A stretch of 64,000 bases of DNA from Candidatus Dojkabacteria bacterium (GTDB taxonomy: Bacteria; Patescibacteriota; Dojkabacteria; J137), in the NCBI GenBank assembly GCA_040006935.1, contig JBDTVZ010000001.1, positions 18,218 through 82,217 on the forward strand, given 5' to 3'. The position numbers were made by a program, and so were the translations under genes. Of the stretch, positions 20,906 to 63,764 are shown piece after piece (the first letter of the stretch is position 1; each line of letters begins with the position of its first letter). Under the pieces are notes generated by a model. It saw only the letters and a program-made list of their open reading frames with translations, was not told the origin of the DNA and did not search any database.

Positions 20906-23900
20906 ATGAATAGTGCAATTGCAAAAGCTATCGCAGGACAAGACACTCTTGTTACTCCAGCTAGATTTGATAATAATCAGCAAAAAGACAGAATGAGAAA
21001 TAAAAATGGAGCTGATGGTCGTGGTCTTGTACAAAAGTACGGTATTAATCCTACTGATTTAGCAGCGCTTGAAGCCTATGTTGATGGAAACCTACAACAA
21101 GTACAAATTATAGACCAAGACGCAAATACAATGGAAGCTGATAGATTAAATCAGTCCAGTGGTGGTGAGCAATGGCTTAGAAAACATAAAATTACTAAAT
21201 TTATTGGTAAATTTGGTAAATTTATAGCACCACAAATTGCAGGAATGGGCGTAAGAGCAGCTTTTGGAACAGTAGGTGCAACAGGTGGTCCATTAGTTGC
21301 AGGGGCAATTGGAGGACTTACAGGTGGTTTAAAAGCTGCAGTTGATATTACATTGGCAGGAAGGAATAACACAGACATTGTCGAGTTCTTTGGTAAGAAT
21401 GTAAACGTGGCTGGAGTATTTGAGCAACAGAATAGAGATAAATGGAAAGTAGATAAATTGGCAAGAGGCTGGTTTAATTGGGGAAAAAATTGGGCATTAG
21501 AACCAGTTTATAAATATCAAGAGAGAGAAGATAGGATTTTAAATTTCTTAAGCGATAAAAGGCTAGATTTTTCTAGAGAGGGATATTTCAGAGATCCAAT
21601 GACGGTATTCCCTGTAATGAAGAATCTCCCACTTTCAGATATCCAATTATTTTTGAAAGATTTGTATATACAAGGTACTCTCCTTAGTGCTGTAGGGAGC
21701 AGAAAGGATTTAACACCAGAAGTTAGAAGGATAATCCAAAATTGGATAGACTCATTTTGTGAATTACAACTAATGCTAAATGCTATTTTGTTGAATAGAG
21801 GTTTGCCTTTAACACAAATAGAAGGGATTAGGACTGATGCAACGAAAGAAATAACTTCGTTTAGATCTGCCAAAGGAGAGGCTGCATATGCTCTCAGAAG
21901 AGGCACAACTAATGCAATTCAAAGTGCTGTTTATAATGTAGCATTCCAAACCTTAGTAACAGGTGTTCAAAAATTAGTTACACACTATCAAGGTCTAGTT
22001 ACAATTAATAGAGAGTTAGTTCCAATAAATAACAATGTGGATGCAATGAGGGCAGCTAATCCTCGTTTGGATCAAATAGATCAACAGGTACAGAATTTAC
22101 AGACCCAATTACAACAGACAAACGTAGCTGGTGGGGTTACTAATGTAACCAATCAAGTAGTGCAAAATGTGGCAGGGACTGCAAGAGATAGAGCCCTTTC
22201 ACTCTTTGGTGCAGATTACTTAAATAATGCCGGAATGGGAGAAATGGGAAGGTGGGCAAGAGTTGCAGCAATACAAACTTTTCAAAATCAATATACACCT
22301 CAAGTTGAGAATTTGATTGGAACTTTATCAAGAAACACACACTTAAGCAGAGATGATATCTTAGCCTGGATAATGAATAGAGGGTCTATTGATGGAGCTT
22401 ATCAAGTAGTTGGCGGAGCTTCTATAGTAAATTTAAACGTAACTGATTTACTAACAAGAGCCATAAATGGTCAGTATAATGTTGCATCAATTATTCAAGG
22501 TGCAAATGCAAATGTAGATGCTAGGTGGTTAGATTTAATGAAAAATGGAATGGGACAAATAATTAATCAAGTAACTACTACTAATGTTGCAGGTGCTGGA
22601 TTAACAGATGCTGCACGAGCAAATATTTTTGAGCAAATTGCGAGATTATTAGCTGAGAAAGCTTTAATTGGAGAGAATATTGGGGGAGCTGAATTGCAAA
22701 GAGCAGTAGCTGCTATGGATCCTAACATTTTAAGACAGATATCAGAAGGAAGTGTAAATGTTTTGGATTACTTAATCGATACTGGGTTAATTGTTGCTGG
22801 CGGTGCAATTGGGTTTATAGGTGTTGCAGGTTCTTGGGCAGCAGAAAGTGGGGAATTAGGCACAAGAAGAACTGTTGAAGTTAGAAGAAATATCCCTAAT
22901 CCAAATACTCCTATGCCGCCACCGGTTGGGCCAAATGGTAGACCTTATCCTCAGCCTAACGCGCAACGTGCAGCAGTTTATAATGCAACGCCATATCCAC
23001 AACAAGCTGCGAATCAGCAGCCAGGATTAGCTCCTGTTCCGCAAGGAGGATTAGGTTCAGGTGTTCCAGTTTCAAGCGATGAAACGCTTCATGGTGTCAG
23101 AGCATTGGATGATGCTTCAGCTCAAACAGTCCCATCTGATTTTTTTGCTAACACAAGGCAAAATACCTCCACTCAGCCTATATTAAATAATGCTGTGCCT
23201 CAACAAAATCAACCAGTAGATCAAAATAATCTTGTAGCTAAGATTAATCAAATTATGACTGAGAATTATGACTTGCCTAGAATTATTAATGAGATAATTA
23301 ACAATCCTAGAACAATTACTTTGGACGCTGTTATCCATAACGATAATATATCGAGGCTTTTTGACAAAGCCTTGATCTCGAATTTAGGTATTAAAGAGAA
23401 AGTCTACTATTTAGGAAATGATGGACTAAAAAAAGAAAAAGATATTATGAAATTGATTATTATTAATGACCAATACAATGATATTGTGAAGGATCTAGAC
23501 GCTTGGGGATTAAGTAAAGATCAAATTATCCTTAGACGTATTGTTAATAAACCAGGTGGAGGTGAGGAGGAAGTATTCTACAATATGAAAATAAATAATA
23601 GAAATTATACAATTGAGGAAATAACTGATTCAGGTGTTGAAGTAGGTGGTATTCAATATGGAACACCAAAAGTCACTGACTTAGGCATTGGATTCAATTT
23701 ACTTAGTCAAATAGAAGAAACACAGAAATCTACATCAGTAGGAGAAAATCAAGTAGAAAATAAGGACGAAGATATTATTGCGAGATTTAATATTCCTGAT
23801 TATCCTACTGGAGCTTCTCAGGGTTATCCCGAATCTATAGCAGGAAAAGAAGCAATTATTAATAAAAATTATAAAGAGGAGTATAAATTGCAGCCATATG

Positions 23901-26900
23901 ATGGAGAAGTAGAAAAATATCCACTATTTGATAATGATTACAATGAATTTGACGGAATAATGTTACATAGATTTGAAATTGAAGGTCAAAAATTTGATTT
24001 ATTTATAACTAAAGAAGGTGCAATTTGGTATTTCGATAAAGATAATAATTTTATGAGATTAGAAAATCCTGCAAATGTAGGAGGAACTATTACTTTAGAT
24101 AACGGTGAAGCTTATGAAATAAAATTAGATGCAAATCATAATGTAAGAGTTAAGAAGAACGAAGTTGTTGCAGCACCAGATGTAATTGGTGAGAAGATAA
24201 TTGTAGATGGAGATGAAGTTATCATTAACTCATCAGAAAATTTAAGATTACTTGGCTCTGGAAATAGCTCTATCCCACTTGAATCTTTTGCGATTAAAGA
24301 TGGTAAAGGGAAAATAGAAGAAGACTCAAGGCTATTAGTAATTAATAACCAGAAGTATGTGTTCAGAGATGGGAAAATATATGAAATTAATGGAACAGAG
24401 GTAGTAGAAGATCAAGATGGAACTATCACTATTGAATCATCAAAAGAGCGAGATGTGAAAGTAAAATTATCTAACGGTAAAATAGAAGTATATGAAATTA
24501 TAAAGGGTGATCTTAAATTACCAAAATTGGAAAGAAGAGAATTCCAAGCTAACAGTGTCGAAACGAAGAAACTAAGTTCAGAAGAAAGATTGCAATCACT
24601 AAATGATCAATTAAAAGATAAAAAAATCACTATAGAAAACAAAAATGAGAGTGCAATTACTATTAGTGATTTAGAATTAACACCAGATGAAAAGGCTTTA
24701 CTCCAAGGAAGATTATCTTTGTGGTACGACAGAATTCAAGAAATCAACCCTTTAATCTTAACTGGTCCGTATGATAAAACTTTCAATTTTCAAGAGTATG
24801 GTAATGGTGAAAGTATAGCTGCTGCAATTGTAGAATCTGGTTTTGAAGGAAATAATAATAGTTTAAATCTAGTTGATTTTATAAATAACCCTGACAAATT
24901 GGATATAGCTGATGTAGAAAGAGCTTTGATTAACAAATTTGGATGGAAAGAGGAAAAACAAGCAGAAAATAGAGTGGAAATTATGCTTTATGTTTACCAT
25001 TTAGTTCATGCTGTGGAAGGTGCATTAGGTGGATATTTCGGAGTATATAATCAATTAGAGGCTCTTGATGGTAAAGATATAAAAATTGATATTCAAAATG
25101 ATTCTGGGGCAAATGCTATTCGTTTTGTAGGTAAAGATAATATTAAAGAATTAACACCAGAGAACAAGGCCTTCATTGGCGGTAGAATTACTAAATTATT
25201 TGATATTTCTAGGAAGTTGAATCCTGATATTAGCCCTGAAGACCATCAAACACTTCACTATGACTTTTCAAATGATGGTAATAGGATGCTTAATGCTATT
25301 AGAAAAATTGTTTCTAAAGAGAACGCGGGACCAATATCCTTGTTTAATCTATTAAATGAGATCGAGATTATTGATTTCGGAGAATTATTCCCAACGTTGT
25401 TTATGGAGGGTTGGAAAGACGACAACATGAATGATAATAGAGCAGCAGTTGGTTTAATGCTTTGGCATTTAGCAAATGCAATTGAGGGACAGCTAAGTGA
25501 TAATGAAGTAAAGGGCGAAGACAAAATTTTGGATGTTGACACTGAAATAAAAAAAGACAAGGAATTTGTTGTCAGATTAATCTCTAGCATAAAAGATGTC
25601 ACACCTAAATCTACCTCTGAAGAACGGCTATTCCCGATGGTATTTGAAGCGATTGGCTATAATACTGGAAATAGAGATAACCCAGATTTGCTTGTAACAG
25701 CAATTATTATGGATTCTATTGAGCATTATGCACTTCCAGGATTAGTAAATAGAATAATAGACTTAATGGATATTGATGATGTCGATAGAGAATCCGTGCG
25801 ATTAGGAATTTATACATTTATAGAGGAAAAATTATTAACTAACGATATTGCTGTAGTTCATAAGGACGATGCAAAGACTGCTTTAATTGGACTTGAATCC
25901 AGGAAAACTCTAGAGACACTAGATATTGCTTTAAGTGTCGAAGAAATAAGTAAATTAAATAAAGAAAGTAATGAAGATGAACAAACTAATAATTTAGAAG
26001 TTAACAAGTTCCCGGAGAGTATGGAACTAAACAAGGCATATGAAACTTTAATTCAATGGGATAGAAATCCTTTAAAAGTTGAAATCCCAGTAACTAATGA
26101 GCAAGGGGTAAGTTTTCAGATAAGTTTTAACCATAAAGAATTAGTACCAGCACTTAATGCAGAAGGTCGAATAATGCATAGGGAATTTAACGTTAAGAAC
26201 TCCCAAAATGTTAAGGATTATCCTACTGAGTCTGGGGAATACACGTTGATTTATTCTTTTAGTAAGGTTAAAACATCGGGAGAGGGGATTGAAAGTTTAT
26301 TAATAGAGTATAAAGTTTTAAAGAAAGAAACTCCCGATTCTAAAAATATAGATAAAGTTAAGCTACTAAGAACGATTGAAGAAAAAGAGAAAAACTTAGG
26401 AGAATTACAAGAACAATTACAATCTAATCTAATAAGTAGAGAACTTTATAATGTCAAGAGGAGAGATTTAATGTTTAAAGTAGGAAATGATTGGTTATTA
26501 GTGGGGTTAAAACGATGGCATCTTCATCATCCTGAAAAAGCAGGTACCAAGGACGAATGGGAAATAATTAACCCATACCAAAGGTATCAATTAGAGAGGC
26601 CTATTATTAAAACTAAAGATATTAATGAACCAGACTTTCTTGCCAGCCTAAGTGAGGGTAATGATCAGGTAATCAGAAATCTAGATGCTGAGAAAATAAT
26701 TGGAGAACTTAAGCCAGGAAGACAGTTTGAATCGGATGATAATATCTTTACAGTTATAGAGATTACCCCAAACGGAGTATTTAGAACAAAAAGGCAATCA
26801 AGGAAAGGGGGAATAGAAGTATCTCTAAATTTTGCAAGAGAAAATCTATTGGAATATTTTACAGAAGGAAGGTTGAGAACTATTGAAAATATTAATGTAA

Positions 26901-27463
26901 ACGAAAATAAAAAGAAAGTAGATGAAATTGTTATCTCATTAGAAAAAAATAAAGAACTAATTGAAAGATTAACTATCAATGACAGATTCAGAAGAAAAAC
27001 CACAAATACTACTTACACAATCGAAGATAATGATGGTGATAGTTTGGTAGTAATAGAAAGCACTGCTCGAACAGAAACTCCTATGTTTTTAAGAAAAAGC
27101 ATTTTGCTTGAATGGTTGCTTAACGATGATGTGGAGATGTTAGAGCCAGAAGATAATTCTGAATATGAAAAAACTGTTGAAAACTTAAAGAAAGGGGATG
27201 AATTTACCTACAACGGAAACAAGTACGTGGTTTTACCTAGTATCTCAGGTTATCGTGGGATAGTTGGCGGTAACATAGATAAGCGAAGCGATGTGAAGAG
27301 ATTTCCATCTGGGACCTTTATGAGATTTTTAAAGGAAGGAGTAGTTAAGATTGAAAGTACGAATGAAGAGATAACGCAACAAGTTGCAAAAGGAGTAAAG
27401 GAAGCTCAGAGAAGTCCAACAGCTATTCTAAAGGAAATAGCAGATACTTATGAAGATTTATAA
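20906..27463 (+). CDS. giant protein 1 (2185 aa), unknown family
   Basis: Uninterrupted 6.5-kb ORF. Gly-rich hydrophobic segments at 21221..21362 and 22772..22853, a Pro/Gln-rich linker at ~22885..23230, then a K/E/I/N-rich body with internal duplications (24780-25030 vs 25255-25500) and three C-terminal ~60-aa repeats (26702..27357). Confidence 0.8.
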   Translation: MNSAIAKAIAGQDTLVTPARFDNNQQKDRMRNKNGADGRGLVQKYGINPTDLAALEAYVDGNLQQVQIIDQDANTMEADRLNQSSGGEQWLRKHKITKFIGKFGKFIAPQIAGMGVRAAFGTVGATGGPLVAGAIGGLTGGLKAAVDITLAGRNNTDIVEFFGKNVNVAGVFEQQNRDKWKVDKLARGWFNWGKNWALEPVYKYQEREDRILNFLSDKRLDFSREGYFRDPMTVFPVMKNLPLSDIQLFLKDLYIQGTLLSAVGSRKDLTPEVRRIIQNWIDSFCELQLMLNAILLNRGLPLTQIEGIRTDATKEITSFRSAKGEAAYALRRGTTNAIQSAVYNVAFQTLVTGVQKLVTHYQGLVTINRELVPINNNVDAMRAANPRLDQIDQQVQNLQTQLQQTNVAGGVTNVTNQVVQNVAGTARDRALSLFGADYLNNAGMGEMGRWARVAAIQTFQNQYTPQVENLIGTLSRNTHLSRDDILAWIMNRGSIDGAYQVVGGASIVNLNVTDLLTRAINGQYNVASIIQGANANVDARWLDLMKNGMGQIINQVTTTNVAGAGLTDAARANIFEQIARLLAEKALIGENIGGAELQRAVAAMDPNILRQISEGSVNVLDYLIDTGLIVAGGAIGFIGVAGSWAAESGELGTRRTVEVRRNIPNPNTPMPPPVGPNGRPYPQPNAQRAAVYNATPYPQQAANQQPGLAPVPQGGLGSGVPVSSDETLHGVRALDDASAQTVPSDFFANTRQNTSTQPILNNAVPQQNQPVDQNNLVAKINQIMTENYDLPRIINEIINNPRTITLDAVIHNDNISRLFDKALISNLGIKEKVYYLGNDGLKKEKDIMKLIIINDQYNDIVKDLDAWGLSKDQIILRRIVNKPGGGEEEVFYNMKINNRNYTIEEITDSGVEVGGIQYGTPKVTDLGIGFNLLSQIEETQKSTSVGENQVENKDEDIIARFNIPDYPTGASQGYPESIAGKEAIINKNYKEEYKLQPYDGEVEKYPLFDNDYNEFDGIMLHRFEIEGQKFDLFITKEGAIWYFDKDNNFMRLENPANVGGTITLDNGEAYEIKLDANHNVRVKKNEVVAAPDVIGEKIIVDGDEVIINSSENLRLLGSGNSSIPLESFAIKDGKGKIEEDSRLLVINNQKYVFRDGKIYEINGTEVVEDQDGTITIESSKERDVKVKLSNGKIEVYEIIKGDLKLPKLERREFQANSVETKKLSSEERLQSLNDQLKDKKITIENKNESAITISDLELTPDEKALLQGRLSLWYDRIQEINPLILTGPYDKTFNFQEYGNGESIAAAIVESGFEGNNNSLNLVDFINNPDKLDIADVERALINKFGWKEEKQAENRVEIMLYVYHLVHAVEGALGGYFGVYNQLEALDGKDIKIDIQNDSGANAIRFVGKDNIKELTPENKAFIGGRITKLFDISRKLNPDISPEDHQTLHYDFSNDGNRMLNAIRKIVSKENAGPISLFNLLNEIEIIDFGELFPTLFMEGWKDDNMNDNRAAVGLMLWHLANAIEGQLSDNEVKGEDKILDVDTEIKKDKEFVVRLISSIKDVTPKSTSEERLFPMVFEAIGYNTGNRDNPDLLVTAIIMDSIEHYALPGLVNRIIDLMDIDDVDRESVRLGIYTFIEEKLLTNDIAVVHKDDAKTALIGLESRKTLETLDIALSVEEISKLNKESNEDEQTNNLEVNKFPESMELNKAYETLIQWDRNPLKVEIPVTNEQGVSFQISFNHKELVPALNAEGRIMHREFNVKNSQNVKDYPTESGEYTLIYSFSKVKTSGEGIESLLIEYKVLKKETPDSKNIDKVKLLRTIEEKEKNLGELQEQLQSNLISRELYNVKRRDLMFKVGNDWLLVGLKRWHLHHPEKAGTKDEWEIINPYQRYQLERPIIKTKDINEPDFLASLSEGNDQVIRNLDAEKIIGELKPGRQFESDDNIFTVIEITPNGVFRTKRQSRKGGIEVSLNFARENLLEYFTEGRLRTIENINVNENKKKVDEIVISLEKNKELIERLTINDRFRRKTTNTTYTIEDNDGDSLVVIESTARTETPMFLRKSILLEWLLNDDVEMLEPEDNSEYEKTVENLKKGDEFTYNGNKYVVLPSISGYRGIVGGNIDKRSDVKRFPSGTFMRFLKEGVVKIESTNEEITQQVAKGVKEAQRSPTAILKEIADTYEDL

Positions 27464-27465
27464 CT

Positions 27466-28485
27466 ATGGATCAACCACCTCAAGATTTGGTCAAAAAAAA
27501 GGGGAAAGTACTAGCTAGCCTTAACTTGTATCCAGAGCTTCTAAATCATCCTGATATGCAGGAGGATCGGCTAGCTACATTGAACCAAATTGGAGAAACT
27601 CTTTTAGGTTTGTTTCAAAAATTATTTAGTAACCCTGAGTACTACGGCGATGTATTTTTCATTGGTGGAATAGAAAAATGGCTTTCCGATTTAGAGAATA
27701 TTGAGATATTTGAAGCAGTAGTTCAACAACTTCGAACACTGGAGGAGATAGGGTCTGATCAAGCAGAATGGCATATTAGAAACTTTTTAAATAATGTAGC
27801 AAAAAGAGTTAAAAGTAATGGAGGTCAGTTATCACTACAAACAAATGATAAGTTAGGAATTACGGAAGCCGAAGCTGTTTTTAAGCAAATGGATAAAATT
27901 AGTGCAGAAAGAATTCATATCCCTGAGAATTTAAATATTTTATTGGACCAAAGATTTATAATTTCTGCACGCGAACTAGAAATAGATATGCAAAAGGTTT
28001 TAGCGCGTCCAAAAGTTACAGAAGTATCCTTTTTAGATCAGCCTAGAGCAGATTTCCAAAAAGAGATTGAGATGTACGATAATGATAGCGAAATTGATGG
28101 AGTTCTTTTGTTTATTCTTTCCAACTTAACAGGAGATGCTATGCAATATGTTATCAATCAAATGGTAAATAAATTAAAAAGAACTACTCAAACAGTTGTG
28201 GCAGTTCTTGAAAGGTATAGAACTTCGTTTGAAAGCAGAGTTTTGAGAGGAGAACAAATCTCGGTCTATGGATCGCCAATACGAGATTATGAATTAATTA
28301 TAAATGAAATACTTGATCTTATTAAAGAACAAGAGAAAAAGAATGGAGAGTATTTATTCGGTGCAGTAGATCTACTTAGAACCAAATCACCAGACGGGTT
28401 TGTAGGTATAACTAAAATGTCACAAATACTATTAACCACACATAGAGCAAGGTATAAAAGTAAAATTATAGCCTTACTAAAATAA
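27466..28485 (+). CDS. hypothetical protein between the giant genes
   Basis: 339-aa ORF, 2 nt after giant 1 and 20 nt before giant 2. No recognisable motif. Confidence 0.6.
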   Translation: MDQPPQDLVKKKGKVLASLNLYPELLNHPDMQEDRLATLNQIGETLLGLFQKLFSNPEYYGDVFFIGGIEKWLSDLENIEIFEAVVQQLRTLEEIGSDQAEWHIRNFLNNVAKRVKSNGGQLSLQTNDKLGITEAEAVFKQMDKISAERIHIPENLNILLDQRFIISARELEIDMQKVLARPKVTEVSFLDQPRADFQKEIEMYDNDSEIDGVLLFILSNLTGDAMQYVINQMVNKLKRTTQTVVAVLERYRTSFESRVLRGEQISVYGSPIRDYELIINEILDLIKEQEKKNGEYLFGAVDLLRTKSPDGFVGITKMSQILLTTHRARYKSKIIALLK

Positions 28486-28505
28486 ATCTCTTCTATAGTT
28501 CTAAA

Positions 28506-31500
28506 ATGCAGTACGATGAGATTAAACAAACACAAAATAATAATCTTACCGAAATTCAAAGAGAACGTGAATTAAAAGCTGCACAACTTCGAGCACAAAA
28601 TGCTTCTACAATTTTAAACAAAAAAATTAATCGGTCTTCATTTTCTAATTCTGCTAAAGAAGTTAAACCATTTGATTATCTTGAACGGCTAGAATGTTCC
28701 ATGACATTAGATAGAGTTGATTCAGAAAGAAATGGTACTAATATCAATACTCAAATTATAAATTGTGATTACTCTACAGAAATAGATTCTAAAGGTAGAG
28801 AAATAATTAAAATGACAGTGCCCCATCGGCTGGATTTTTTAGCACTAAATTTAAACCCAGGATCAGTTTTTATTTTTGATAGGTCTAACTATAGATTGCT
28901 ATCTATAGAACAAAAAGATCAGCAGAAAGTAGTAAATTCTGTTGAAGTTTGGCCTCATGTTGAAATACTATCTATAGATAAAATACTTTTCACATTCTCA
29001 GATTTACTTAATAAAGAGAAAATCGTAGCCTTTGAAAGTTTAGAAAATAATGTAATGCGTCTCAAAAAAGGTCCTTTTGATGGCTTCCCAAATAAAATTT
29101 ATTTCCAAAAATATAACCTTGAGAACCCAATATTTATTGAAGACTATGATGAAATTAAAAAAGCCTACCATGCTCCTGGGCAAGGGTCTTTTATTGATGT
29201 TGATTATAATATGGCTATTAAAGCGTTTAACCAAGCATCGAACATATTAGAAACCGAAGACAGAACTGCTGATTTTCAATACCCAGAAGTATTAAGATTA
29301 TTTTCTAAATTAAAAATAGCATTTGCTAAAGATTTAATTCCTAATGAAAATCCTCATGACACTGTTTTTGAATTGAGATTAAGAAACGAATTAAATATTG
29401 ATGGTGTACATATTTACGCAGGGGCAGTAATGAAAATTGATGTGAATGATCCAGAATTTTTTACAATAAAGTATCCTCCTCAAAATGGTGTCCAGATTGA
29501 GTTTATAGAAATAAATGGCACAAAATTATATGCACCAGGGGAAATTTTGTGTAGAAATACCTCCGAAGATCTCCAAATAACCTCAATAAATGGTGGCCAA
29601 CTCGAGAATATGGGAAGCGAAAGAGTTATTAAAATTATAAAAGCAAATAATGGATTTATTGGCTTGGTAGCAAATGATGAAGTAATTAAATTCACGAAAG
29701 ATCATAAAGTTTTAACTTTACTAAGTAATGTGGACCCATCAGTACAAATACTAATAAGTGATATTATGAAAAATAGATACTTTTTACATGATATTTACTC
29801 TGATAATTACCTAGAAGGGGCAATTGAACTTGTAAGTAATCACACAGGTTCTCTTGCTACAATAATATTTGAAGATGAACAACCTGGGAATATAATTATT
29901 CCAAACTATCCAAACATTCATCCATCGTTACACGGTCTTGCAATAGGCCAATTTGACAGATTAATTTTAGATAAAAAAGGTGAATTTGCAATCTTTGGCG
30001 TTGCTACTGAAAGATACGATATGCATTTTCGTGGAGTATGGTACGAAAGAATAGAACGAATTTTTATAAATTTTCGAACTGGAGAGGTTAGGTTTAGGTG
30101 TGATAGCTATTTTGAAGGTGGCAAAAGATACGGTCAAACTAAGTACAGTGAGAATACTTATATTATTGTCGATAATTTAGGCCTTAAACAAACAGGAGAT
30201 GGTATATTTTCTGAAGTCGAAAACAATGTGCCAAAGGGAGATGATTATAAGGACCACATTTCAAGGACGCTTAAAATTAAAGAAATAAGAATAGGAGATA
30301 TGAGACAGTTAAATGAAGATAGGATTGATATAACTGCATCATTTGACTCAATAGTATTAAATAACCAAGAAAACCCCACATTACATAACTGGATATACGC
30401 ACAGGCTCCATTTGGAAGTATTGTTAACTTTAATAGTAAAAATTCTATAATTGAAAGCATTGAAGTACCCTACGATACCTATATAAAATCTGGTGGGATA
30501 CGCGCATCACTAGGATCTAGCTTTAAAATAAGTGGTATAAGAAAAGTTTTATTTGAGGAAGATTCTCAGAATTTTCCATTAGATGTAAAGGAATTAAAAG
30601 GTGAAATTACTATTACATTAAATAATAAAATTTATAGGGCAAAAGATATTAGTGTTAATAGTTTAGGTTTAAAATTGGACAAATTCCCTTTAATTACTTG
30701 GGAGGTTATTTACAATGGTGCTACAGAATTACCTGATGAGTTATTAGTGGAAAATAATAGTGTAAATATACCAACAAAGAACGAAATTCTTTATCTTGCA
30801 AATCGATTAACTGTGCAGGTTAATAATAGGAAACCTGAAGATGACTTTGATCTAGAACAAAATGTAAATAGTTTAATCGGGCTAACAAGATGGCTATATG
30901 AATCTGCAAATAAATTAGGTGGCCCATTCAATCTAGCGGAATGGGTTACAATCTATAAACCATTACTTTATTATTACTATAACGACCCTGAGGCAGTAAT
31001 ATTGCTAATAATGGGCTTTATACCTAATTCAAACGGTAATATAGATCCAATAGATTACATGTTTCTTTATGCAACATACCTTGAGATTTTTAAACAAAGA
31101 TATCCGGAGGTAGAAAGTGAATTAATTTTACTATTGAGTAGTTTAAACCCCGATCTTAAATTTATATATAAGAATGAAATTAAAGATATTATAAGTAATT
31201 TTGAAATACTCGAAGATGAGAATAAGCAACATTTCCTAGACGAGTTAGATAGCATAAATATGGATACGCCTAGTCATATCCCAGTCCCAGTAAGTCACTC
31301 TCAAGTAGAAGGCTTCAAAGCAGACCAATTCTCAATAGAAAAAGGTTTTCTCAAATTTAATGAAGAACCTAAAGCAATCGATCTTTTACAAAGAATAGGT
31401 AACCTTCGAGAACTTTCAACTAGCTCTGAGCTTGACAAGCAAATAGAAATAATTAAAGAAAACGGTTCGAGAATTGATATGAATGTTGTTGGTCAGATTT

Positions 31501-33941
31501 CTCAAATCCTTGAAACAATAATAGGCTTTAAGATCGAAGGTTTAGATCTAGCTAAGAACTTTGTTGTATTTGGAATGATAATAAACTTTGCAAATAACTT
31601 ACGCGAATTAAAGAACAAAAGGTCTAAAGACTCTCAAGAAGAAATAAATATTGCTATAACTGAACTGCAGAATAAAATAAATAGAATTAAATCTGGCGAA
31701 TTAACAGAAGAAGAAATGCAATTTGAAATGTCTAATGAAAATGTATTGAAGATTTTAATGCACATGACCTCCGGAACTTTACCCAAAGAATATCTAGTAT
31801 TTACAATATTGATGTTGATTACTTCTGGTGTTGAAATTGCTGGAGTTAGAAACGTTTTAAAACTTGATCAAATTATAAAAAACCAAAGAGGAGATGATAT
31901 TGGAGTTCCGTATTTAAAGTATAGAGAGGAAATACTTGAAGTAAAAGCCACAGGAAATGTGATGGCACTACAAGAAGTTATTATAAAAAACGTAAGCATG
32001 TTAATCAACTACATGAGAAATTTTCATAATTACGAGGATTACTCCGAAGATTTTTTAGTAATGTGTAAATTATTGAACCTTAAAGAAGGTGAGTTCTCTA
32101 CCAACTGTTTTGGTATAGGGCTAATTTATCAAGCCATACTTGACTTAATGATTGGTGATATTTGTGAGATTAATTATGCAACTCTCCATCACGAATTAGG
32201 TAATGATATTGAAGACTGGTTTAAAAATCTGGGTGAAATAGTTATGGCGGGTCATGCTGTATTCATTATTAAACTTCCACTTATAGATGGAGAGGAAAAT
32301 AAATATATCATTGGAGATCCACTAAGTGTGATTAACAGCTTAGCTCAAAAAAATAAAAGAAAACCTTTAGACAAACATCATAATTGCATGGTTGTAAAGG
32401 AGTCCGAACTTATGCTAGACAATGAGATTAATTCTGTTCTTGAAAATACAAAATTCGTTACTATAGATCCTAATAAAAAAATCCGAATAGTTCAGAAAGA
32501 TAATAAAGAAATACAAATGAAGATAGATCCTAATGATGTTTATCAAGTATATAAAGACAGGAATTCTATTTTAACCTATGCAATGATTAGTTCCTTCAGA
32601 GATTTAAATGGCTACTTAACAACCATAGCGCCAGATGAAGGTGAAGTATTAATGGATATGATTACAGATTCAAAATATAAAGGAGATAGAAACAAAGCAT
32701 TTGAGAAGTATATGCTTTTATATAATAGATATTCAGGATTTGAATATAGATCTACAAACTCTAATCAAGTAATAGCATCGAATATAATATTATTAAATTT
32801 TGCTCTTGAAAATGATTATTATATTGAAGCTTTGTTCCTGGCCAATGTAAATAAAATAAAATTAGCCAAACTATATCCAGACAAAGACGACTACGATGAA
32901 TCTTTAATTTTCGATACGCAAAAAGCATTTATACTTACAAAAATAGCCAATCTCGATGAGACAGAAATCCTAAAATTAATTGAAGATAAAAAATATCTTT
33001 TAAGAAAAGAAGATATTACACTTATCTGGGAAAATGTCTCCTTTATAAATTTAACATTGCGTTTATTTAATGAAACAAAAGAGGATCAAAAAAGAACTCT
33101 AAAATTACTATCTTCTGAGTCACTTTACTATTTGATTTTTGATCCACTAAGATACAATAATATCCAGGAAATGAAAGACTTATGTAAAGAGATATTAAAA
33201 GTTGCTTTGGAAAATGATTATTTACCATATTCAGCTTATATTATAGAAAAACTAGTTAAGTTAAGTCCCGAAGACGAAACTCTGAAATTAGTAGAAGATA
33301 AGATTATAAAATTCATTGCTAAAACCGATAACTATATAATACTTACACAACTAAATCCACATTTAATTTTCTCAAAATTTATAGACAAAATTCATAAAGT
33401 TTTAGAAGTTAGTTTTGAGATACCAACTATCCAATCAATTTTAAACATATTGAATGGAGTGAAGGATGATAAAGTTATTGATGATCAATACGAAAGTCTT
33501 CACAAAGTATTAAGTAGTAATCACACTGCACTTGATAGAGCTGCTTATCGACATAAAGTTGAAGAAGAAAAAAGAATAGTTGCAGCTGTAGAGGCAAACA
33601 CTCATAGAATTGAGGAGATAAATAATCAAGTAAAAACTGAAGTGAGGTCAGGAGGGCAATCCTACCAATCCCTGCATCAAGAAGAAAAACCCCTTGAACT
33701 TGGAGACAACTATATAAAAATAACTGAAGAGGCTGTTTTCGGATCGATTGATCTACTCGTGAGTAAATATGGTGAACTCTCAGGAGACATAATGGCTCTA
33801 TTTCTTCGAGGAGCTGATGAAACAGTAATTCGTCTAGCAGAGAATAATTTGAGGAAGAAAGGAATATTACTTCCATCACCCGAAAATGCAGCTAAAAGGT
33901 TACAAGGACAAAATCTCCCATTGTTACAATCGAATTCTTAA
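28506..33941 (+). CDS. giant protein 2 (1811 aa), unknown family, no obvious TM or signal peptide
   Basis: Uninterrupted 5.4-kb ORF. Candidate papain-like Cys..His..Asp arrangement at ~32100..32335. C-terminal helical repeats (ALENDYYIEALF / ALENDYLPYSAYI). Confidence 0.8.
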   Translation: MQYDEIKQTQNNNLTEIQRERELKAAQLRAQNASTILNKKINRSSFSNSAKEVKPFDYLERLECSMTLDRVDSERNGTNINTQIINCDYSTEIDSKGREIIKMTVPHRLDFLALNLNPGSVFIFDRSNYRLLSIEQKDQQKVVNSVEVWPHVEILSIDKILFTFSDLLNKEKIVAFESLENNVMRLKKGPFDGFPNKIYFQKYNLENPIFIEDYDEIKKAYHAPGQGSFIDVDYNMAIKAFNQASNILETEDRTADFQYPEVLRLFSKLKIAFAKDLIPNENPHDTVFELRLRNELNIDGVHIYAGAVMKIDVNDPEFFTIKYPPQNGVQIEFIEINGTKLYAPGEILCRNTSEDLQITSINGGQLENMGSERVIKIIKANNGFIGLVANDEVIKFTKDHKVLTLLSNVDPSVQILISDIMKNRYFLHDIYSDNYLEGAIELVSNHTGSLATIIFEDEQPGNIIIPNYPNIHPSLHGLAIGQFDRLILDKKGEFAIFGVATERYDMHFRGVWYERIERIFINFRTGEVRFRCDSYFEGGKRYGQTKYSENTYIIVDNLGLKQTGDGIFSEVENNVPKGDDYKDHISRTLKIKEIRIGDMRQLNEDRIDITASFDSIVLNNQENPTLHNWIYAQAPFGSIVNFNSKNSIIESIEVPYDTYIKSGGIRASLGSSFKISGIRKVLFEEDSQNFPLDVKELKGEITITLNNKIYRAKDISVNSLGLKLDKFPLITWEVIYNGATELPDELLVENNSVNIPTKNEILYLANRLTVQVNNRKPEDDFDLEQNVNSLIGLTRWLYESANKLGGPFNLAEWVTIYKPLLYYYYNDPEAVILLIMGFIPNSNGNIDPIDYMFLYATYLEIFKQRYPEVESELILLLSSLNPDLKFIYKNEIKDIISNFEILEDENKQHFLDELDSINMDTPSHIPVPVSHSQVEGFKADQFSIEKGFLKFNEEPKAIDLLQRIGNLRELSTSSELDKQIEIIKENGSRIDMNVVGQISQILETIIGFKIEGLDLAKNFVVFGMIINFANNLRELKNKRSKDSQEEINIAITELQNKINRIKSGELTEEEMQFEMSNENVLKILMHMTSGTLPKEYLVFTILMLITSGVEIAGVRNVLKLDQIIKNQRGDDIGVPYLKYREEILEVKATGNVMALQEVIIKNVSMLINYMRNFHNYEDYSEDFLVMCKLLNLKEGEFSTNCFGIGLIYQAILDLMIGDICEINYATLHHELGNDIEDWFKNLGEIVMAGHAVFIIKLPLIDGEENKYIIGDPLSVINSLAQKNKRKPLDKHHNCMVVKESELMLDNEINSVLENTKFVTIDPNKKIRIVQKDNKEIQMKIDPNDVYQVYKDRNSILTYAMISSFRDLNGYLTTIAPDEGEVLMDMITDSKYKGDRNKAFEKYMLLYNRYSGFEYRSTNSNQVIASNIILLNFALENDYYIEALFLANVNKIKLAKLYPDKDDYDESLIFDTQKAFILTKIANLDETEILKLIEDKKYLLRKEDITLIWENVSFINLTLRLFNETKEDQKRTLKLLSSESLYYLIFDPLRYNNIQEMKDLCKEILKVALENDYLPYSAYIIEKLVKLSPEDETLKLVEDKIIKFIAKTDNYIILTQLNPHLIFSKFIDKIHKVLEVSFEIPTIQSILNILNGVKDDKVIDDQYESLHKVLSSNHTALDRAAYRHKVEEEKRIVAAVEANTHRIEEINNQVKTEVRSGGQSYQSLHQEEKPLELGDNYIKITEEAVFGSIDLLVSKYGELSGDIMALFLRGADETVIRLAENNLRKKGILLPSPENAAKRLQGQNLPLLQSNS

Positions 33942-35911
33942 ACTTGCGGTGGAACAGCTGAAACTTCTGTAGTAACAGGTTGTTCAATAGGCTGTGCTTG
34001 AGGAGTTACATTATCTGTTGGTAGAACTGTTCCTGGTTGTTCTAATGGTGGAGCCGAAGAAATATCTAACTGATCTCCTTCTTCATTTTCTACTTTCTGT
34101 TGAAGTAACTCATTAGGGTTTGTAGTTATCAAATTATGCTCATTTTGACTTGCAACAATTTGTATAGCAACATGATTAGCCCCAGCAAAAAATAATCCTT
34201 GTCCAATTCCTGCAGACATTAAAAAAGACTTTTCACCATCTGTAAGATAGAATACTTTCTTTAATTTATCTATCGCAGCTGGTGCTTGCTTCAATAATAT
34301 CTGCATGGATGAGTTATTAATTATTGCTTTACCATAATCTGAAGCTAAGAAGTCATCAACATCTTGTGTAATAGTTGTTAGACCTAATGCATATTTTCTA
34401 GCTCTCTTAGCAATTGAGTATACAAACTTGGCAGCATCTTCGTATTGCATCATAATCCAAGCTTCATCAATTATTAATAATCTTTTCCTCTTATCTCTTT
34501 TAATCTTGGTCCAAATGTAATCAAGCATTACATACATGGCCATTGGTCTTAAATCATCAGCTAAATCACGAATTGAAAATACTGTAAATGTATTGTGAAT
34601 GTTAACCGTGGATTTCCTATCAAACACACCAGATGCGGAACCTTTTAAATATTTTTCTAATCTACGAGCCATTGAATGGGATTCATCTTCCGACATTGCA
34701 TTTAAAATCTTATACAAATCTTCTAACAAAGGAGCTTCGTTTGAATGTGTTGATGGATCGGGTGTGATACCTTTTTCTTTGTACGTTAATATTAAAGCTC
34801 TATCTAAAATTGCTGCTTCCTCTGCAGTTACTGTTCCACCCAACATCATTCTAATTAATCCAGAGAGAGTTAAAATTTTAAATCGGAGTTCATCTTCATC
34901 AGCGTTAAATATCCCAGATAATTCAAAGGGATTCAATTTCTGAGCACCGTCTTGCGAGAATGATATATATTCTCCACCAACTGCATCACATAATCTATCA
35001 AATTCTTTTTCTGGGTCTATAATAATAATGTCAATTCCAAGCATTAAGGACCTCACAGCTTCCAATTTAACTGCATAGGATTTACCAGCTCCGGATGTAG
35101 CCAAAACGACTGAGTTAGCATTAGGAAGTGAAAATCTATCGAAAATAACTAAAGAATTATTATGAAGATTAACCCCATATAAAACTCCTTTATCCATTGT
35201 TAACTCACTACTGACGAATGGGAAAGTTGTAGCAATGGCAGTAGTATCCAAGTTTCTGGTCATATTTATTTTATCAAGACCATATGGAATTGTGCTTTGG
35301 AAACATTCTTCTTGTTGAAGTGTAGCAACTTTAATAATAATTCCAATCGTTGCCATTGTGCTCTCCAGATTCTTTGAAATTTTATCTAACTCTTCCATAG
35401 TATCTGCATGCAATGTTACGTACAAGGCATATTGGAAGAATTTTTCGTTCCCAGCGGCAAGCTGTTCTTGCAAAGTTAATGCATCTTTAAGTTGTACTGC
35501 AACAATAGGATCTCCTTGTCTACCTGCTTCAATTTCAATATTTATTGTTGCCTGAAACTCTGCAATTTTTCTTTTTAAGATTTTTAATATTTCACCAGTT
35601 TCAAAAGGATAATAATAAGTGCTGATGTCTACGGGATATTCAAAGTTAATTAATGGTTCTAACCAACTAGGAGAAACAACACTAGGAAAGCCGATAGCAA
35701 AATATGATCTAAAATACTTATTCCCTATTATTAAATTACTGAAGTTAACCTCAATGGCACTTGGTGCAATAATGTCTTTAACATCAATTAATCCTTGAGC
35801 AAATTTCTGAATAGATTGGTTCTCTCGAGCCAAAGCAGCAGCTTCTTGAGGGTTTATAGGTTTTGTACCTTTTTTAGGTTTTGCGTCTGGTATTAATCCG
35901 AATAAAGCCAT
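33938..35911 (-). CDS. virB4: VirB4/TrbE-class type IV secretion ATPase (C-terminal ~3/4 of a typical VirB4)
   Basis: YFRSYFAIGFPSVVSPSWLEPL, Walker A VVLATSGAGKSYAVK, IIIDPEKEF, NPFEL, Walker B RLLIIDEAWIMM, RKYALGLTTITQDVDDF, NSSMQILLKQ. Pro/Gln-rich C-terminal tail. Confidence 0.85.
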   Translation of the reverse strand: MALFGLIPDAKPKKGTKPINPQEAAALARENQSIQKFAQGLIDVKDIIAPSAIEVNFSNLIIGNKYFRSYFAIGFPSVVSPSWLEPLINFEYPVDISTYYYPFETGEILKILKRKIAEFQATINIEIEAGRQGDPIVAVQLKDALTLQEQLAAGNEKFFQYALYVTLHADTMEELDKISKNLESTMATIGIIIKVATLQQEECFQSTIPYGLDKINMTRNLDTTAIATTFPFVSSELTMDKGVLYGVNLHNNSLVIFDRFSLPNANSVVLATSGAGKSYAVKLEAVRSLMLGIDIIIIDPEKEFDRLCDAVGGEYISFSQDGAQKLNPFELSGIFNADEDELRFKILTLSGLIRMMLGGTVTAEEAAILDRALILTYKEKGITPDPSTHSNEAPLLEDLYKILNAMSEDESHSMARRLEKYLKGSASGVFDRKSTVNIHNTFTVFSIRDLADDLRPMAMYVMLDYIWTKIKRDKRKRLLIIDEAWIMMQYEDAAKFVYSIAKRARKYALGLTTITQDVDDFLASDYGKAIINNSSMQILLKQAPAAIDKLKKVFYLTDGEKSFLMSAGIGQGLFFAGANHVAIQIVASQNEHNLITTNPNELLQQKVENEEGDQLDISSAPPLEQPGTVLPTDNVTPQAQPIEQPVTTEVSAVPPQV

Positions 35912-36834: not shown

Positions 36835-37383
36835 TTGAAATGTATGCCTTCTCCAGAAGAATCAGAAAAATTATTATTAGAATATATACAAAATGAGTCA
36901 TTGTTGAATCATTGCAGAATGGTTGCGAAAGCAATGGGAGCTTATGCAAAATCTTTAAATCTTTCCGAAAATGAAGTAGAGGAATGGTACACAGCAGGAT
37001 TATTACACGACTTAGATTGGGAAAAATTTCCTGATGAACACCCGAATAAGGCTGTAAACGAAATACTTCCAGCAAAAGGTTATCCTGAGAATGTAATTCT
37101 TGCTGTTAAAGCACACGGACCTCAAAGAACTGGTAAATATCCAGAAACTAAAATCGAAAAATACTTATTTGCATGCGATGAACTATCTGGATTTCTAAAT
37201 GCATCGTCCTTAATGAGGCCTACAAAATTCGAAGGTATGGAAGTTAAATCGGTAAAGAAAAAATTAAAAGATAAGCATTTTGCAGCTAATGTAAGCAGAG
37301 AGGATATAGAAGAAGGAGCAAGATTAATTGAGAGACCAATTGAGGAGCATATTCAGTTTTTGATAAATGTGTTTAATAATTAA
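36835..37383 (+). CDS. HD domain-containing phosphohydrolase
   Basis: NHCRMVAKAM...AGLLHDLDWEKFPDEHP (H..HD motif), then KAHGP. Confidence 0.75.
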   Translation: MKCMPSPEESEKLLLEYIQNESLLNHCRMVAKAMGAYAKSLNLSENEVEEWYTAGLLHDLDWEKFPDEHPNKAVNEILPAKGYPENVILAVKAHGPQRTGKYPETKIEKYLFACDELSGFLNASSLMRPTKFEGMEVKSVKKKLKDKHFAANVSREDIEEGARLIERPIEEHIQFLINVFNN

Positions 37384-37392
37384 AACTATTAT

Positions 37393-37463
37393 GGACCGCC
37401 GAACTATTGCGCGAGAATTGGCGGTATGACCTCACCCTAACCCTCTCCTTGAAAGGAGAGGGA
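37393..37463 (+). repeat. GC-rich two-hairpin dispersed repeat, copy A
   Basis: GGACCGCC-loop-GGCGGTATGACCTCACCCTAACCCTCTCCTTGAAAGGAGAGGG. Homologous copies at 46885..46956 and 62216..62288 (opposite orientation) and a diverged copy at 63673..63764. Confidence 0.8.
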
Positions 37464-37700
37464 ATTGGTCCCTCTTGTAATGACAAGTGCACCTGAGATT
37501 CATAAGGTACACAGATTTACCCTGTCGAAGGCATGGTCTGCGCCCCTGTTATTCGTATGGGGTCCAGCCACCTGCCTGACTGCGCACACAGGCACGGTGA
37601 CTGGACCTTCATTAAGTGCCAAGTTAAAGAGTGTTGTAACATCATGCAGTAATAAACTGCCACGATCAAAAGATGAGGTGGTAAGGTCAACATAAAACTA
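37464..37700. ncRNA. GC-rich structured non-coding block (candidate RNA or element remnant, unknown class)
   Basis: Visibly GC-rich in an AT-rich genome. Near-perfect long hairpin GGTCCAGCCACCTGCCTG-actgcgcaca-CAGGCACGGTGACTGGACC, plus smaller hairpins (CCCC...GGGG, GGTA...TACC). The 76-aa ORF here has no protein-like features. Confidence 0.3.
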
Positions 37701-37742
37701 AAGCTAATAAATTCGCTAAGATTTATAGCAGTATAGCAATAA

Positions 37743-37770
37743 CAAAAAAAACTGGATTTTACTCCAGTCT
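37743..37770 (-). terminator. Rho-independent terminator of 37791..38156
   Basis: Minus strand reads GACTGGAgtaaaaTCCAGT followed by TTTTTTTT. Confidence 0.75.
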
Positions 37771-37790
37771 TTTAAACTTCTAAAAAGAAA

Positions 37791-38156
37791 TTATGCAGTC
37801 ACAGGTGTTTTTCCTTTGGTAGCTTCTGCTCTTGGAACTAGGAAGTAAATCAAGATTCCAATAATATTAAAGAAGAAACATAATACTGCCCATAATCCAG
37901 CGTTTTCAATTTTATGCTTAGTAGCATCTTTGTAAACCAAATAAGCTATTACAGAATCGATTAGTAATGGAACACAACAAACGCAAAGTAACCAAACAAA
38001 GCTAAACCCTAAACCTGCTGCACTTGCTGCTGCTGCATCTGCTGCTGTAGTCGTAGTGTATGGATAGTATGTTTGTGCAAATGCTGGTGTTGCAAGAAGT
38101 GTGAATCCAACAACTGCTGTTATCGCTGCAAGCGCTCTTGAGAAAATTTTTCTCAT
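37791..38156 (-). CDS. small membrane protein with signal peptide
   Basis: 121 aa. Signal-like N-terminus (...LLATPAFAQ), an Ala/Thr-rich stretch, then two TM helices with YKDATKHKIENAGLWAVLCFFFNIIGILIYFLV. Confidence 0.6.
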   Translation of the reverse strand: MRKIFSRALAAITAVVGFTLLATPAFAQTYYPYTTTTAADAAAASAAGLGFSFVWLLCVCCVPLLIDSVIAYLVYKDATKHKIENAGLWAVLCFFFNIIGILIYFLVPRAEATKGKTPVTA

Positions 38157-46840: not shown

Positions 46841-46861
46841 TCTCCCCTTCATAAGGGGAGA
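46841..46861. repeat. GC-rich hairpin TCTCCCCTTCATAAGGGGAGA
   Basis: Perfect 8-bp stem immediately after the ABC gene stop. Adjoins repeat copy B. Confidence 0.6.
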
Positions 46862-46884
46862 TGGCGAAGCCGAGGGGTTTGGCT

Positions 46885-46956
46885 CCCTCTCCTTTTAAGG
46901 AGAGGGTTGGGGTGAGGTCATACCGCCGCAAAACCACGTACTAGTTAGGGCGGTCC
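46885..46956 (-). repeat. GC-rich two-hairpin dispersed repeat, copy B
   Basis: CCCTCTCCTTTTAAGGAGAGGGTTGGGGTGAGGTCATACCGCC-loop-GGCGGTCC is the reverse-complement orientation of copy A. It sits between the two ABC half-transporter genes. Confidence 0.8.
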
Positions 46957-48752: not shown

Positions 48753-48788
48753 GTCATTGCGAGCGAACGAAGTGAGCGTGGCAATCCC
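48753..48788. repeat. GC-rich 'GTCATTGCGAGCGAACGAAGTGAGCGTGGCAATCC' element
   Basis: A GC-rich island just after the ABC stop. A related GTCATTCGTAGGGTCCGTCGATCGACGAACC lies at 63609..63639. Confidence 0.4.
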
Positions 48789-49007
48789 GTATTAAAAGCA
48801 AATCTATTAAAGATACACGACGAAATCTGTATGGCAGGCAGGTTAAAAAGAGGGGAATGAATAACAACTCATAGCAATAACACTTTTCATTATTTGAAAA
48901 TTAAATACTGATTATTTGTCAGTGGTTATTATAAAAACCTATAACATTTTTTTTCTTGCAGTCTGTTTACGAATTTATTAAACTGGACTCATTTGGTAAA
49001 TTTTTCT

Positions 49008-54241: not shown

Positions 54242-54592
54242 TTAGTAAGTTAACATTTTATTAATCAATCCAGACAGCATCTTCCCTATTATAACTAATG
54301 AACTATAAATATTGCTATACTCGATTTCGTTTATTTTATCTTCGATCTTTAGAAGCTTTATTATTGCTACACATTCCTGCGTGGAACCACGAGCTATTAT
54401 ATAAAAGTTCTTCTTATCTTTACTACTATATTTACCAGCTCCCTCTGCAATATTTAACAAAATACTTGAAGACGCACGATATAACTGGTCTCTTAGGCTA
54501 TTATGTATCAATCTATTTTTTAGAAAAGGTTGTAGAGAAGTTATTAAGTCTTCAGTTTTCAAATACACAGGAAATTTTTCGAAATCAAACAT
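54242..54592 (-). CDS. four-helix-bundle protein (23S rRNA intervening-sequence protein family)
   Basis: MFDFEKFPVYLKTEDL...LRDQLYRASSSILLNIAEGAGKYSSKDKKNFYIIARGSTQECVAIIKL. Confidence 0.85.
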   Translation of the reverse strand: MFDFEKFPVYLKTEDLITSLQPFLKNRLIHNSLRDQLYRASSSILLNIAEGAGKYSSKDKKNFYIIARGSTQECVAIIKLLKIEDKINEIEYSNIYSSLVIIGKMLSGLINKMLTY

Positions 54593-54969: not shown

Positions 54970-54984
54970 ATTAATTACTCCACA

Positions 54985-62134: not shown

Positions 62135-62215
62135 ATACCAATTATATCACAAAACGAAGTGTTTTACGAGGCATCAGGATTGTGGATCATGCTAAGAGTG
62201 ATGTGAGAAGAAGTT

Positions 62216-62288
62216 CCCTCTCCTTTCAAGGAGAGGGCTAGGGTGAGGTCATACCGCCCCAAAACCATGACATACATCTGGGCGGTCC
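62216..62288 (-). repeat. GC-rich two-hairpin dispersed repeat, copy C
   Basis: CCCTCTCCTTTCAAGGAGAGGGCTAGGGTGAGGTCATACCGCC-loop-GGCGGTCC. Same orientation as copy B. Confidence 0.8.
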
Positions 62289-63672: not shown

Positions 63673-63764
63673 GGACCGCACAAAGAAATATCCTGCTTTC
63701 GGTGCGGTAGAAACCCCTCCGGCTACACCACCTCCCCTTTGATCAAAGGGGAGGGTGGGTGGAG
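63673..63764 (+). repeat. GC-rich two-hairpin dispersed repeat, diverged copy D
   Basis: GGACCGCA-loop-GGTGCGGTAG...CCACCTCCCCTTTGATCAAAGGGGAGGGTGG has the same two-hairpin architecture and orientation as copy A. A 20-nt palindrome GGTCCGTCGATCGACGAACC lies at 63620-63639. Confidence 0.55.

Follow-up and report, generated by a model that had tools for sequence, protein, structure and literature searches.

A BoxC-like three-arm module joined to a lineage-specific hairpin in dispersed GC-rich repeats of a Dojkabacteria genome

Four GC-rich elements (copies A to D) lie dispersed in a 64,000-nucleotide stretch of DNA (hereafter the window) from a Candidatus Dojkabacteria bacterium, a member of the Patescibacteria/CPR whose genome has a GC content of 31%. 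In copies A, B and C the portion that a first-pass annotation had described as a linker followed by a second hairpin is, as judged from its sequence, the motif variously named BoxC, PIT, TMECO and HPG1 in Escherichia coli, where BoxC/PIT/TMECO motifs have been known since the 1990s. What is new is the CPR host, an arm variant of eight triads plus one, a second family of three-arm modules, and the fact that a lineage-specific hairpin is always attached. We consider it probable that the elements are mosaic repeats of the BoxC/PIT class, structure-prone at the level of DNA and with no dedicated cellular function.

Organization of the elements

All four copies are found where the first-pass annotation had placed them, with coordinates and strands verified, two on the plus strand and two on the minus, and neither pattern scans nor a covariance model reveals any further copy in the 64-kb window. 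The pattern GGACCGC-N15-30-GCGGTA matches four times and CCCTCTCCTT-N4-GGAGAGGG is present at three loci, with none expected of either in 100 dinucleotide-preserving shuffles. The covariance model, built from copies A, B and C and run over the whole window with its filters off, returns these three and then copy D at 27.5 bits (E ~7e-6 in the 64-kb window), the rest of the window yielding only reverse-strand self-hits or noise. The elements have a GC content of 53-56%, compared with 29-36% for the window, and all lie between 37.4 and 63.8 kb. The first 37 kb contains no repeat elements; at 20906-35911 it holds two giant ORFs (2185 and 1811 aa) followed by a convergent gene (33938-35911) for a TraG/VirB4-like P-loop ATPase.

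Hairpin 1, the part present in every copy, has the form ACCGC..GCGGT with a variable loop. It reads GGACCGCC-(19 nt)-GGCGGT in copy A (37393..37425, plus strand), and has the same arms around 21 nt in copy B (46922..46956, minus strand) and 22 nt in copy C (62253..62288, minus strand), in agreement with the loop lengths of 19-22 nt given previously; the loop sequence TGGTTTTG is common to B and C, as had been claimed. Copy D carries a variant (63673..63708, plus strand), GGACCGCAC-(20 nt)-GTGCGGT, with one extra pair. Five stem pairs are invariant in A-D, while the sixth is C-G in A-C and A-T (A-U in RNA) in D, a double change, and further pairs are built from different bases in each copy. The stem of hairpin 1 is maintained through one double change and variable extensions, and the description of conserved stems and variable loops holds for this hairpin. 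Among A-C the stems, the linker or junction and the adjoining unit are 95-98% identical, whereas the loops are less than 50% identical; such strong conservation beside drifting loops could reflect selection for function and not recent spread.

The sequence following hairpin 1 is indeed ATGACCTCACCC(T/C)A(A/G)C as annotated, but reading it as a linker fails, as it forms the third arm of a three-arm motif. On the G-rich strand, "linker + hairpin 2" is CCCTCTCCT-TTCA-AGGAGAGGG-TTA-GGGTGAGGT, in which a pyrimidine arm precedes the purine arm that forms Watson-Crick pairs with it and a mirror copy of the latter. In copy A this unit occupies 37426..37464 (G-rich strand minus) and is followed by CAT, with 9/9 permitted purine-motif triads. 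The units of copy B (46883..46921, G-rich strand plus; CCCTCTCCT-TTTA-AGGAGAGGG-TTG-GGGTGAGGT-CAT) and copy C (62214..62252, G-rich strand plus; CCCTCTCCT-TTCA-AGGAGAGGG-CTA-GGGTGAGGT-CAT) differ from it only in their loops. The hairpin-2 loops had been listed as GAAA, TTAA and TCAA; the latter two are plus-strand readings of minus-strand copies, and in element orientation the loops of A, B and C are GAAA, AAAA and GAAA.

The window was scanned for pyrimidine-only arms of 8 nt or more followed by a perfect complement and by a mirror arm in which every triad is G*G, A*A or T*A. Exactly five loci in the 64 kb have this structure, each of them inside these elements: the units of A, B and C, 46841-46880, and 63711-63764. 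In all, 8 registers match, whereas 40 shuffles average 0.12. The units of A-C have at least eight perfect triads, or nine counting T-A*T, and loops of 4 and 3 nt; a degenerate form of the pattern can be written as CCCTCNCC[CT]-N3-6-[AG]GGNGAGGG-N3-GGGNGAGG.

The two remaining loci represent a second three-arm family, module 3, which is common to copies B and D and has the form (C)CTCCCCTT(T) / (A)AAGGGGAG(G) / (G)GAGGGGTT(T). Beside copy B, where an extra hairpin had been noted at 46841-46861 and is real, module 3 (46841..46880, plus strand) reads TCTCCCCTT-CAT-AAGGGGAGA, an 11-nt loop ATGGCGAAGCC with GCGAAGC, and a mirror arm GAGGGGTT(T); it lies in tandem with the BoxC-like unit and in identical orientation. 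In copy D, module 3 (63711..63764, minus strand) replaces the BoxC-like unit and reads CCTCCCCTTT-GATC-AAAGGGGAGG-(10 nt)-GGAGGGGTTT, with leftover bases CTCCACCCAC that lengthen the palindrome; its 10/10 permitted triads were read by eye, the scan having covered 8-nt arms only. Copy D thus unites hairpin 1 with a different module, and it is a recombinant and not simply a decayed copy.

The same layout is seen on the G-rich strand of every element: one or two three-arm modules, then CAT or CTAC, then hairpin 1. Copies A and C combine hairpin 1 with a BoxC-like unit, copy B has both modules in tandem, and copy D has hairpin 1 with module 3 only, so that three BoxC-like and two module-3 units are present within 27 kb, every one between ORFs. 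The sequences underlying the proposed two-hairpin architecture are real, a more apt description being that of hairpin 1 with one or two triplex-type modules. When folded as DNA the whole elements, with both hairpins, beat shuffles on either strand (z of -4.3 to -5.1), while RNA folding gives z of -1.3 to -4.6, the weakest being copy C. The order of the arms suggests that the unit could in principle also form an intrastrand triplex.

Relationship to BoxC and distribution in other organisms

When copy A is compared with all complete E. coli genomes (5426), only its positions 46-87 find a match, to dispersed repeats that are 81-95% identical and occur in 4276 of the genomes; the E-values of single matches are weak (0.2-3), yet the matches are consistent. 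The E. coli repeat is dispersed, with blastn matches at a median of 8 and up to 19 places per genome, and an instance between hrpB and mrcB reads ...CACCCTCACCCTAACCCTCTCCCTCAAGGGAGAGGGGA and has an inverted partner adjoining. Unit A was aligned with five K-12 copies of BoxC, and the window unit is identical to TMECO no. 2 (type A) at 30 of 35 positions (~86%). The order of the three arms is the same, GGAGAGGGTTAGGGTGAGG (19 nt) is shared exactly, and the second loop of copy A is TTA as in type A. The repeats are multi-copy, strictly intergenic and in either orientation in both organisms, and both have them within operons, between pstB and pstA in E. coli and between a pair of ABC genes in the window. 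The spurious ORFs with ...LTPTLSLKGEG... peptides noted previously are real; LTLTLSLKGEG and SPFKERVRVR peptides arise spuriously from the repeats of both organisms, and a protein-space search with those of A-C leads to ~195 short ORFs with ...TLTLTLSLKGEG... from many metagenomes and E. coli. We know of no function or way of spreading established for BoxC, nor of any enzyme that mobilises it.

TMECO nos. 1 and 2 are exactly these E. coli sequences and have been equated with BoxC and PIT (Holder et al. 2015, PMC4666352), the PIT elements of Hoyne & Maher 2000 being BoxC according to the account given there; the same G-rich core has been named HPG1/HPG2 (Kaplan et al. 2016, PMC5100583). The 2015 survey describes 3610 occurrences of a strict TMECO pattern in 262 proteobacterial genomes, always intergenic, with no strand bias and with no function demonstrated, reports the strict motif only in Proteobacteria, and finds BoxC not associated with mobile elements; it cites Hoyne and Maher as finding no part for BoxC in the regulation of E. 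coli genes (PMC4666352). The strict pattern is CCCTCNCCC-N3-6-GGGNGAGGG-N3-GGGNGAGGG, with one mismatched stem position allowed (PMC4666352), and CCCTCTCCT / AGGAGAGGG / GGGTGAGGT deviates from it by one position in each block, all in one triad. Because this one triad differs, the strict regular expression fails in the window units, and the failure is a near miss and not the sign of a different motif. The arms in the window have eight G/C-type triads and a terminal T-A*T, whereas those of E. coli have nine triads, the ninth being C-G*G; both versions are permitted in a purine-motif triplex. The apparent compensation could reflect AT drift, as the hairpin by itself dictates two of the three changes.

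There are other differences. Only two G3 tracts are left in the window units, giving a weaker potential for G-quadruplex formation, and the host is a Patescibacteria member with 31% GC and not a proteobacterium. The conserved 5′ flank of the E. coli copies (GCGCGGACGGTCC) is absent from the window copies, which carry a conserved hairpin on the other side, and the window has no inverted pairs of type A and type B.

The recommended search for the motif elsewhere succeeded for the BoxC-like unit and gave no match to hairpin 1 in E. coli genomes, plasmids, phages or viral contigs. The unit is present in contigs that are Bacteroidota-like, of which L073 (50% GC, with PF18962 Por_Secre_tail type IX secretion C-terminal domains) carries ATGACCTCACCCTAACCCTCTCCTTAAAAGGAGAGGGAAC, identical to copy A and to copy B at 38 of 40 positions. 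A second set (L074-76; 32% GC, Por_Secre_tail) contains four units in 10 kb, two in tandem, so that in L073-L076 the unit is alone or in tandem; two other contigs (L017 and L020) of 50-60% GC carry pairs of units. Hairpin 1 is absent from all of these. The tandem units of L074 (4941-5100; JGI 3300038679) are 51 nt apart with a GC-rich palindrome CCCCACCCCTGCCCCTCCCCGCAAGCAGGGAGGGG adjoining, and the fourth unit is 600 nt upstream of the pair; this contig shows that AT-rich genomes outside the CPR gather such GC islands too.

The junction with hairpin 1 was found elsewhere only in L003, part of the longer contigs L077/L078 (GC 40%), which was the one real relative recovered with exact patterns from JGI metagenomes, the others being chance matches. 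L077/L078 contain a repeat, 135 nt or longer, in three copies; it starts with a BoxC-like unit and TCATACC(A)GCCAAAC and continues with unrelated hairpins, one copy being 5′-truncated with loss of the pyrimidine arm. In L077 (2900-5500; GCA_044230155.1) and L078 the three repeats are located between small cassettes, one with a CdiA_C toxin domain, and a second GC-rich repeat, GACTTCCTGAGTCTGCGAAGGGCGTCATGCCGTTGTTGCAAGGCGTGTC, occurs four times, an arrangement like that of orphan toxin/immunity cassettes arrayed with recombination repeats.

Exact patterns gave only two matches among GTDB species representatives, both chance coding matches in GC-rich MAGs, and in phage and plasmid collections only the BoxC-like part was matched, mostly in proteobacterial plasmids. 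Viral contigs yielded no match to the junction, and all 47 matches to the hairpin-1 pattern in them were coding or due to chance. Searching at the peptide level with the junction peptides 'RYDLT' and 'VRSYR' likewise showed the BoxC-like unit to be widespread and never found the junction. Hairpin 1 is a lineage-specific partner module with a stem that is kept and a loop that drifts, and from the sequences compared the BoxC-like unit is a shared module with different partners in different lineages.

Genomic context and alternative explanations

All copies are intergenic, as claimed, each lying between ORFs, and their orientation relative to the flanking genes is mixed. Copy A is in the sense orientation 9 nt past the stop codon of an HD-domain gene, and the hairpin and T-run terminator of its convergent gene pair is ~280 nt further on, at 37746-37773. 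Copy C is also in sense, follows the stop of a polysaccharide-synthesis gene by 25 nt and has a sortase gene downstream; the positions of these two copies after stop codons would also suit a role in 3′-UTRs. Copy D is upstream of the start of a minus-strand gene. The product of a gene at 52201-53220, between copies B and C, has collagen triple-helix repeats and a BclA C-terminal domain of the exosporium type, unexpected in Patescibacteria.

Copy B was said to separate the two halves of an ABC exporter, and it is antisense between two ABC half-transporter genes (each ABC_membrane + ABC_tran), occupying 116 nt of a 138-nt gap. In L010 the two orthologous genes overlap by 20 nt, and in L012-14 they are separated by 78 nt, neither arrangement containing a GC island; at 56% identity, even the nearest ABC homologues do not come from close relatives. 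The lack of the element from the gap in relatives fits with insertion, by which we infer that copy B arrived, and the BoxC repeat between pstB and pstA in E. coli lies at an analogous junction. A GC-rich hairpin island that is unrelated, GTCATTGCGAGCGAACGAAGTGAGCGTGGCAATCC, is situated 10 nt past the stop of the second ABC gene (48753-48790), and has a motif that turns up as spurious peptides in many metagenomes.

The DNA directly 3′ of copy A (37464-37740) is non-coding and GC-rich, and includes an imperfect hairpin, GGTCCAGCCACCTGCCTG...CAGGCACGGTGACTGGACC, at 37561-37607. It has no Rfam match at E<=10, fold z-scores of -1.0 (plus) and -2.2 (minus), and as its sole ORF an implausible 76-aa frame with a TTG start. 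This frame is at the right spacing from AAGGAG in the 3′ arm of copy A; sequestration of a Shine-Dalgarno sequence was nonetheless rejected, there being no start codon at B or C and the frame spanning a GC-rich non-coding hairpin region. A closing helix GGACC...GGTCC around the whole element is a feature of copy A only.

Among the identities proposed by the first-pass annotation, a REP-like repeat comes closest, the 3′ two-thirds of the element belonging to the enterobacterial BoxC family, while the MITE half of the same suggestion is unsupported: in all four copies the ends of the element are not inverted copies of one another, the flanks have no target-site duplication or conserved target word, and scanning 30 window ORFs with Pfam identified no transposase, including of the Y1 type. 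The elements are like MITEs (Correia/NEMIS, ERIC, RUP) in being small, non-coding, dispersed, foldable and close to genes, but MITEs have terminal inverted repeats, target-site duplications and a transposase-family match. REP sequences are imperfect palindromes of 20-40 nt that follow a conserved GT[AG]G, usually as inverted doublets, in genomes with a RAYT gene; in the window there are no doublets, and the (C/A)TAC found 5′ on the G-rich strand is GTA(G/T) at the 3′ side on the other. The resemblance to BIMEs is closer, in that these are short GC-rich extragenic palindromes in varied order with other short motifs, in both orientations and often just downstream of genes, with no duplications or inverted termini; the elements lack any REP/PU similarity, a GTAG-type 5′ tetranucleotide or alternating inverted units, and no RAYT gene is seen among the 30 ORFs. 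The joining of modules to different partners nonetheless resembles the mosaic logic of BIMEs. There is also a likeness to motifs of Methanomicrobiaceae, repeated in non-coding DNA, that have G-rich tracts beside a partly complementary C-rich tract and choose between hairpin, antiparallel triplex and G4 (PMC8044849), although these have another sequence and archaeal hosts, with the C-rich arm 3′ of the G-tracts and not 5′ as in the window and E. coli.

Since hairpin 1 combines a conserved stem with a free loop, it, or the three-arm unit, might be a DNA site bound or cut by a RAYT, an IS200/IS605-type single-strand transposase, or a nucleoid or topoisomerase protein. Subterminal GC hairpins of this kind, with no target-site duplication or terminal inverted repeats, are a hallmark of systems that recognize single-strand hairpins, and such a site would also account for dispersal with no target duplications. 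The conserved (C/A)TAC is directly 5′ of the hairpin on the G-rich strand, and the near-identity of the 40-nt unit across phyla (to L073) suggests either a shared recognition constraint or a horizontal vehicle. Against this, there is no Y1 or other transposase among the ORFs scanned, no REPIN-like inverted doublet, no copy in viral contigs, and no association of BoxC with mobile elements in the survey noted above; the tetranucleotide of hairpin 1 is, moreover, on the opposite side from the GTAG of REPs. We therefore regard recognition by such a protein as unlikely.

The elements could also act as cis-acting RNA hairpins, their GC stems serving within mRNAs as 3′-end protectors, attenuators or processing sites, with copy B tuning the ratio of the ABC halves; some REP/BIME elements of E. 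coli act in this way. The positions of A and C are in keeping with this, as are the terminator past copy A, which implies that A would be transcribed, and the passing of a loose terminator scan by hairpin 2 of copy C; the palindromes would form in antisense copies too. But copy B is antisense within an operon, copy D precedes the start of a divergent gene, an RNA hairpin would make no use of the conserved mirror arm, and the RNA fold of copy C is unremarkable (z of -1.3). The suggestion of terminator modules fails for three of the four copies: A, B and D have no T-run or U-tract, and only hairpin 2 of copy C passes a loose terminator scan, with a tail of AACTTCTTCT. Taken together with the lack of a regulatory role for E. 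coli BoxC, as cited in PMC4666352 from Hoyne and Maher, these observations make a function as cis-acting RNA hairpins rather unlikely. Genuine hairpin and T-run sites occur elsewhere in the window, at 37746-37773 as noted above and at 56719-56770, the latter following a 329-aa ORF (55707-56696) that lacks a Pfam match and whose GC is unusually high by the standards of this genome; the region 55643-56770 is possibly foreign DNA.

That the elements are structured small RNAs is also unsupported, given their mixed orientation, a mirror repeat that is a feature of DNA triplexes or G-rich strands, and the lack of any Rfam match overlapping the element (37350-37800) even at E<=10. A specific version of this idea is a trans-acting guide RNA with a kink-turn-like base (GGA...UAUGA flanking CCGCC/GGCGG, of the box D′/C′ type) and the variable 19-22-nt loop specifying targets, in loose analogy to guide RNAs of parasitic bacteria, and copies A-C do fit, by eye, 5′-G-GA-[C helix]...[C helix]-UAU-GA-C-3′. 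The stems are constant from copy to copy and the loops are not, and a stretch within a giant ORF (27218-27236) matches the loop of copy B at 17 of 19 positions, but this match has no extension and is at about chance level for a search space of 128 kb, and the other three loops have no such match. Copy D has UAGAAA, from which tandem G.A pairs do not arise, and the non-canonical helix would contain just one Watson-Crick pair. The element is not flanked by a promoter and terminator, and the copies are dispersed and not arrayed, so that a guide function is very improbable indeed. TIGR-like arrays (PMC12045711) were rejected as a lead on three of these grounds: the absence of arrays, the broken motif in D, and the loop match that does not extend.

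The only Rfam family at gathering score in the window is tRNA-Gly. The match is to a complete tRNA-Gly(UCC) gene (54809-54882) held within a stretch of ~160 nt that splits a tRNA-Gly(CCC)-like gene (54722-54978, minus strand) in its anticodon loop. Pairing is possible between the two ends of the intervening stretch (CCCGCCTGCC / GGCGGGCAGG). Once the halves are joined in silico, ARAGORN recognizes a 72-nt tRNA-Gly(ccc), whereas only the inner tRNA is identified in the native sequence by ARAGORN and Rfam. The gene that follows (54242-54592, minus strand) encodes a 23S rRNA intervening-sequence protein (PF05635).

Mosaic repeats of the BoxC class in a reduced genome

We thus favor the interpretation of the elements as DNA-level mosaic repeats of the BoxC/PIT class. 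Each three-arm module, with its pyrimidine arm, short loop, purine arm, second loop and mirror purine arm, would form a GC hairpin when single-stranded and in principle could adopt a purine-motif intrastrand triplex or a weak G-quadruplex. The elements would be selfish or neutral structure-prone inserts that enter AT-rich stretches between genes, in either orientation, exchange modules by recombination and decay. They would be neither RNA genes nor dedicated regulatory sites, although hairpins within transcripts may incidentally influence mRNA 3′ ends. Both the mobility of the elements and the importance of hairpin or triplex formation in single-stranded DNA are features that we infer.

A bolder proposal is that the BoxC unit is a horizontally moving module with conserved machinery for its recognition or propagation, hairpin 1 being this lineage's handle, for example for a single-strand hairpin-specific transposase. 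It is suggested by the 38/40 identity to a Bacteroidota-like contig, set beside ~86% to E. coli, and by a different hairpin partner in each lineage; we consider it distinctly unlikely. If true, the small Dojkabacteria genome would be a tractable place to learn how BoxC spreads.

The comparisons show that the BoxC unit behaves as a portable module in mosaic repeats. Recognition of these elements explains one class of GC-rich island, and one of spurious '...LTLTLSLKGEG...' and '...SPFKERVRVR...' ORFs, in AT-rich metagenome-assembled genomes, and should be of use in their annotation. The presence of a near-identical unit in a reduced CPR genome of 31% GC and in Bacteroidota-like contigs widens the host range of BoxC, with the third arm kept as a permitted triad and, in the genome described here, the unit always welded to a lineage-specific hairpin; in genomes this small a partner protein, if there is any, should be easy to spot.
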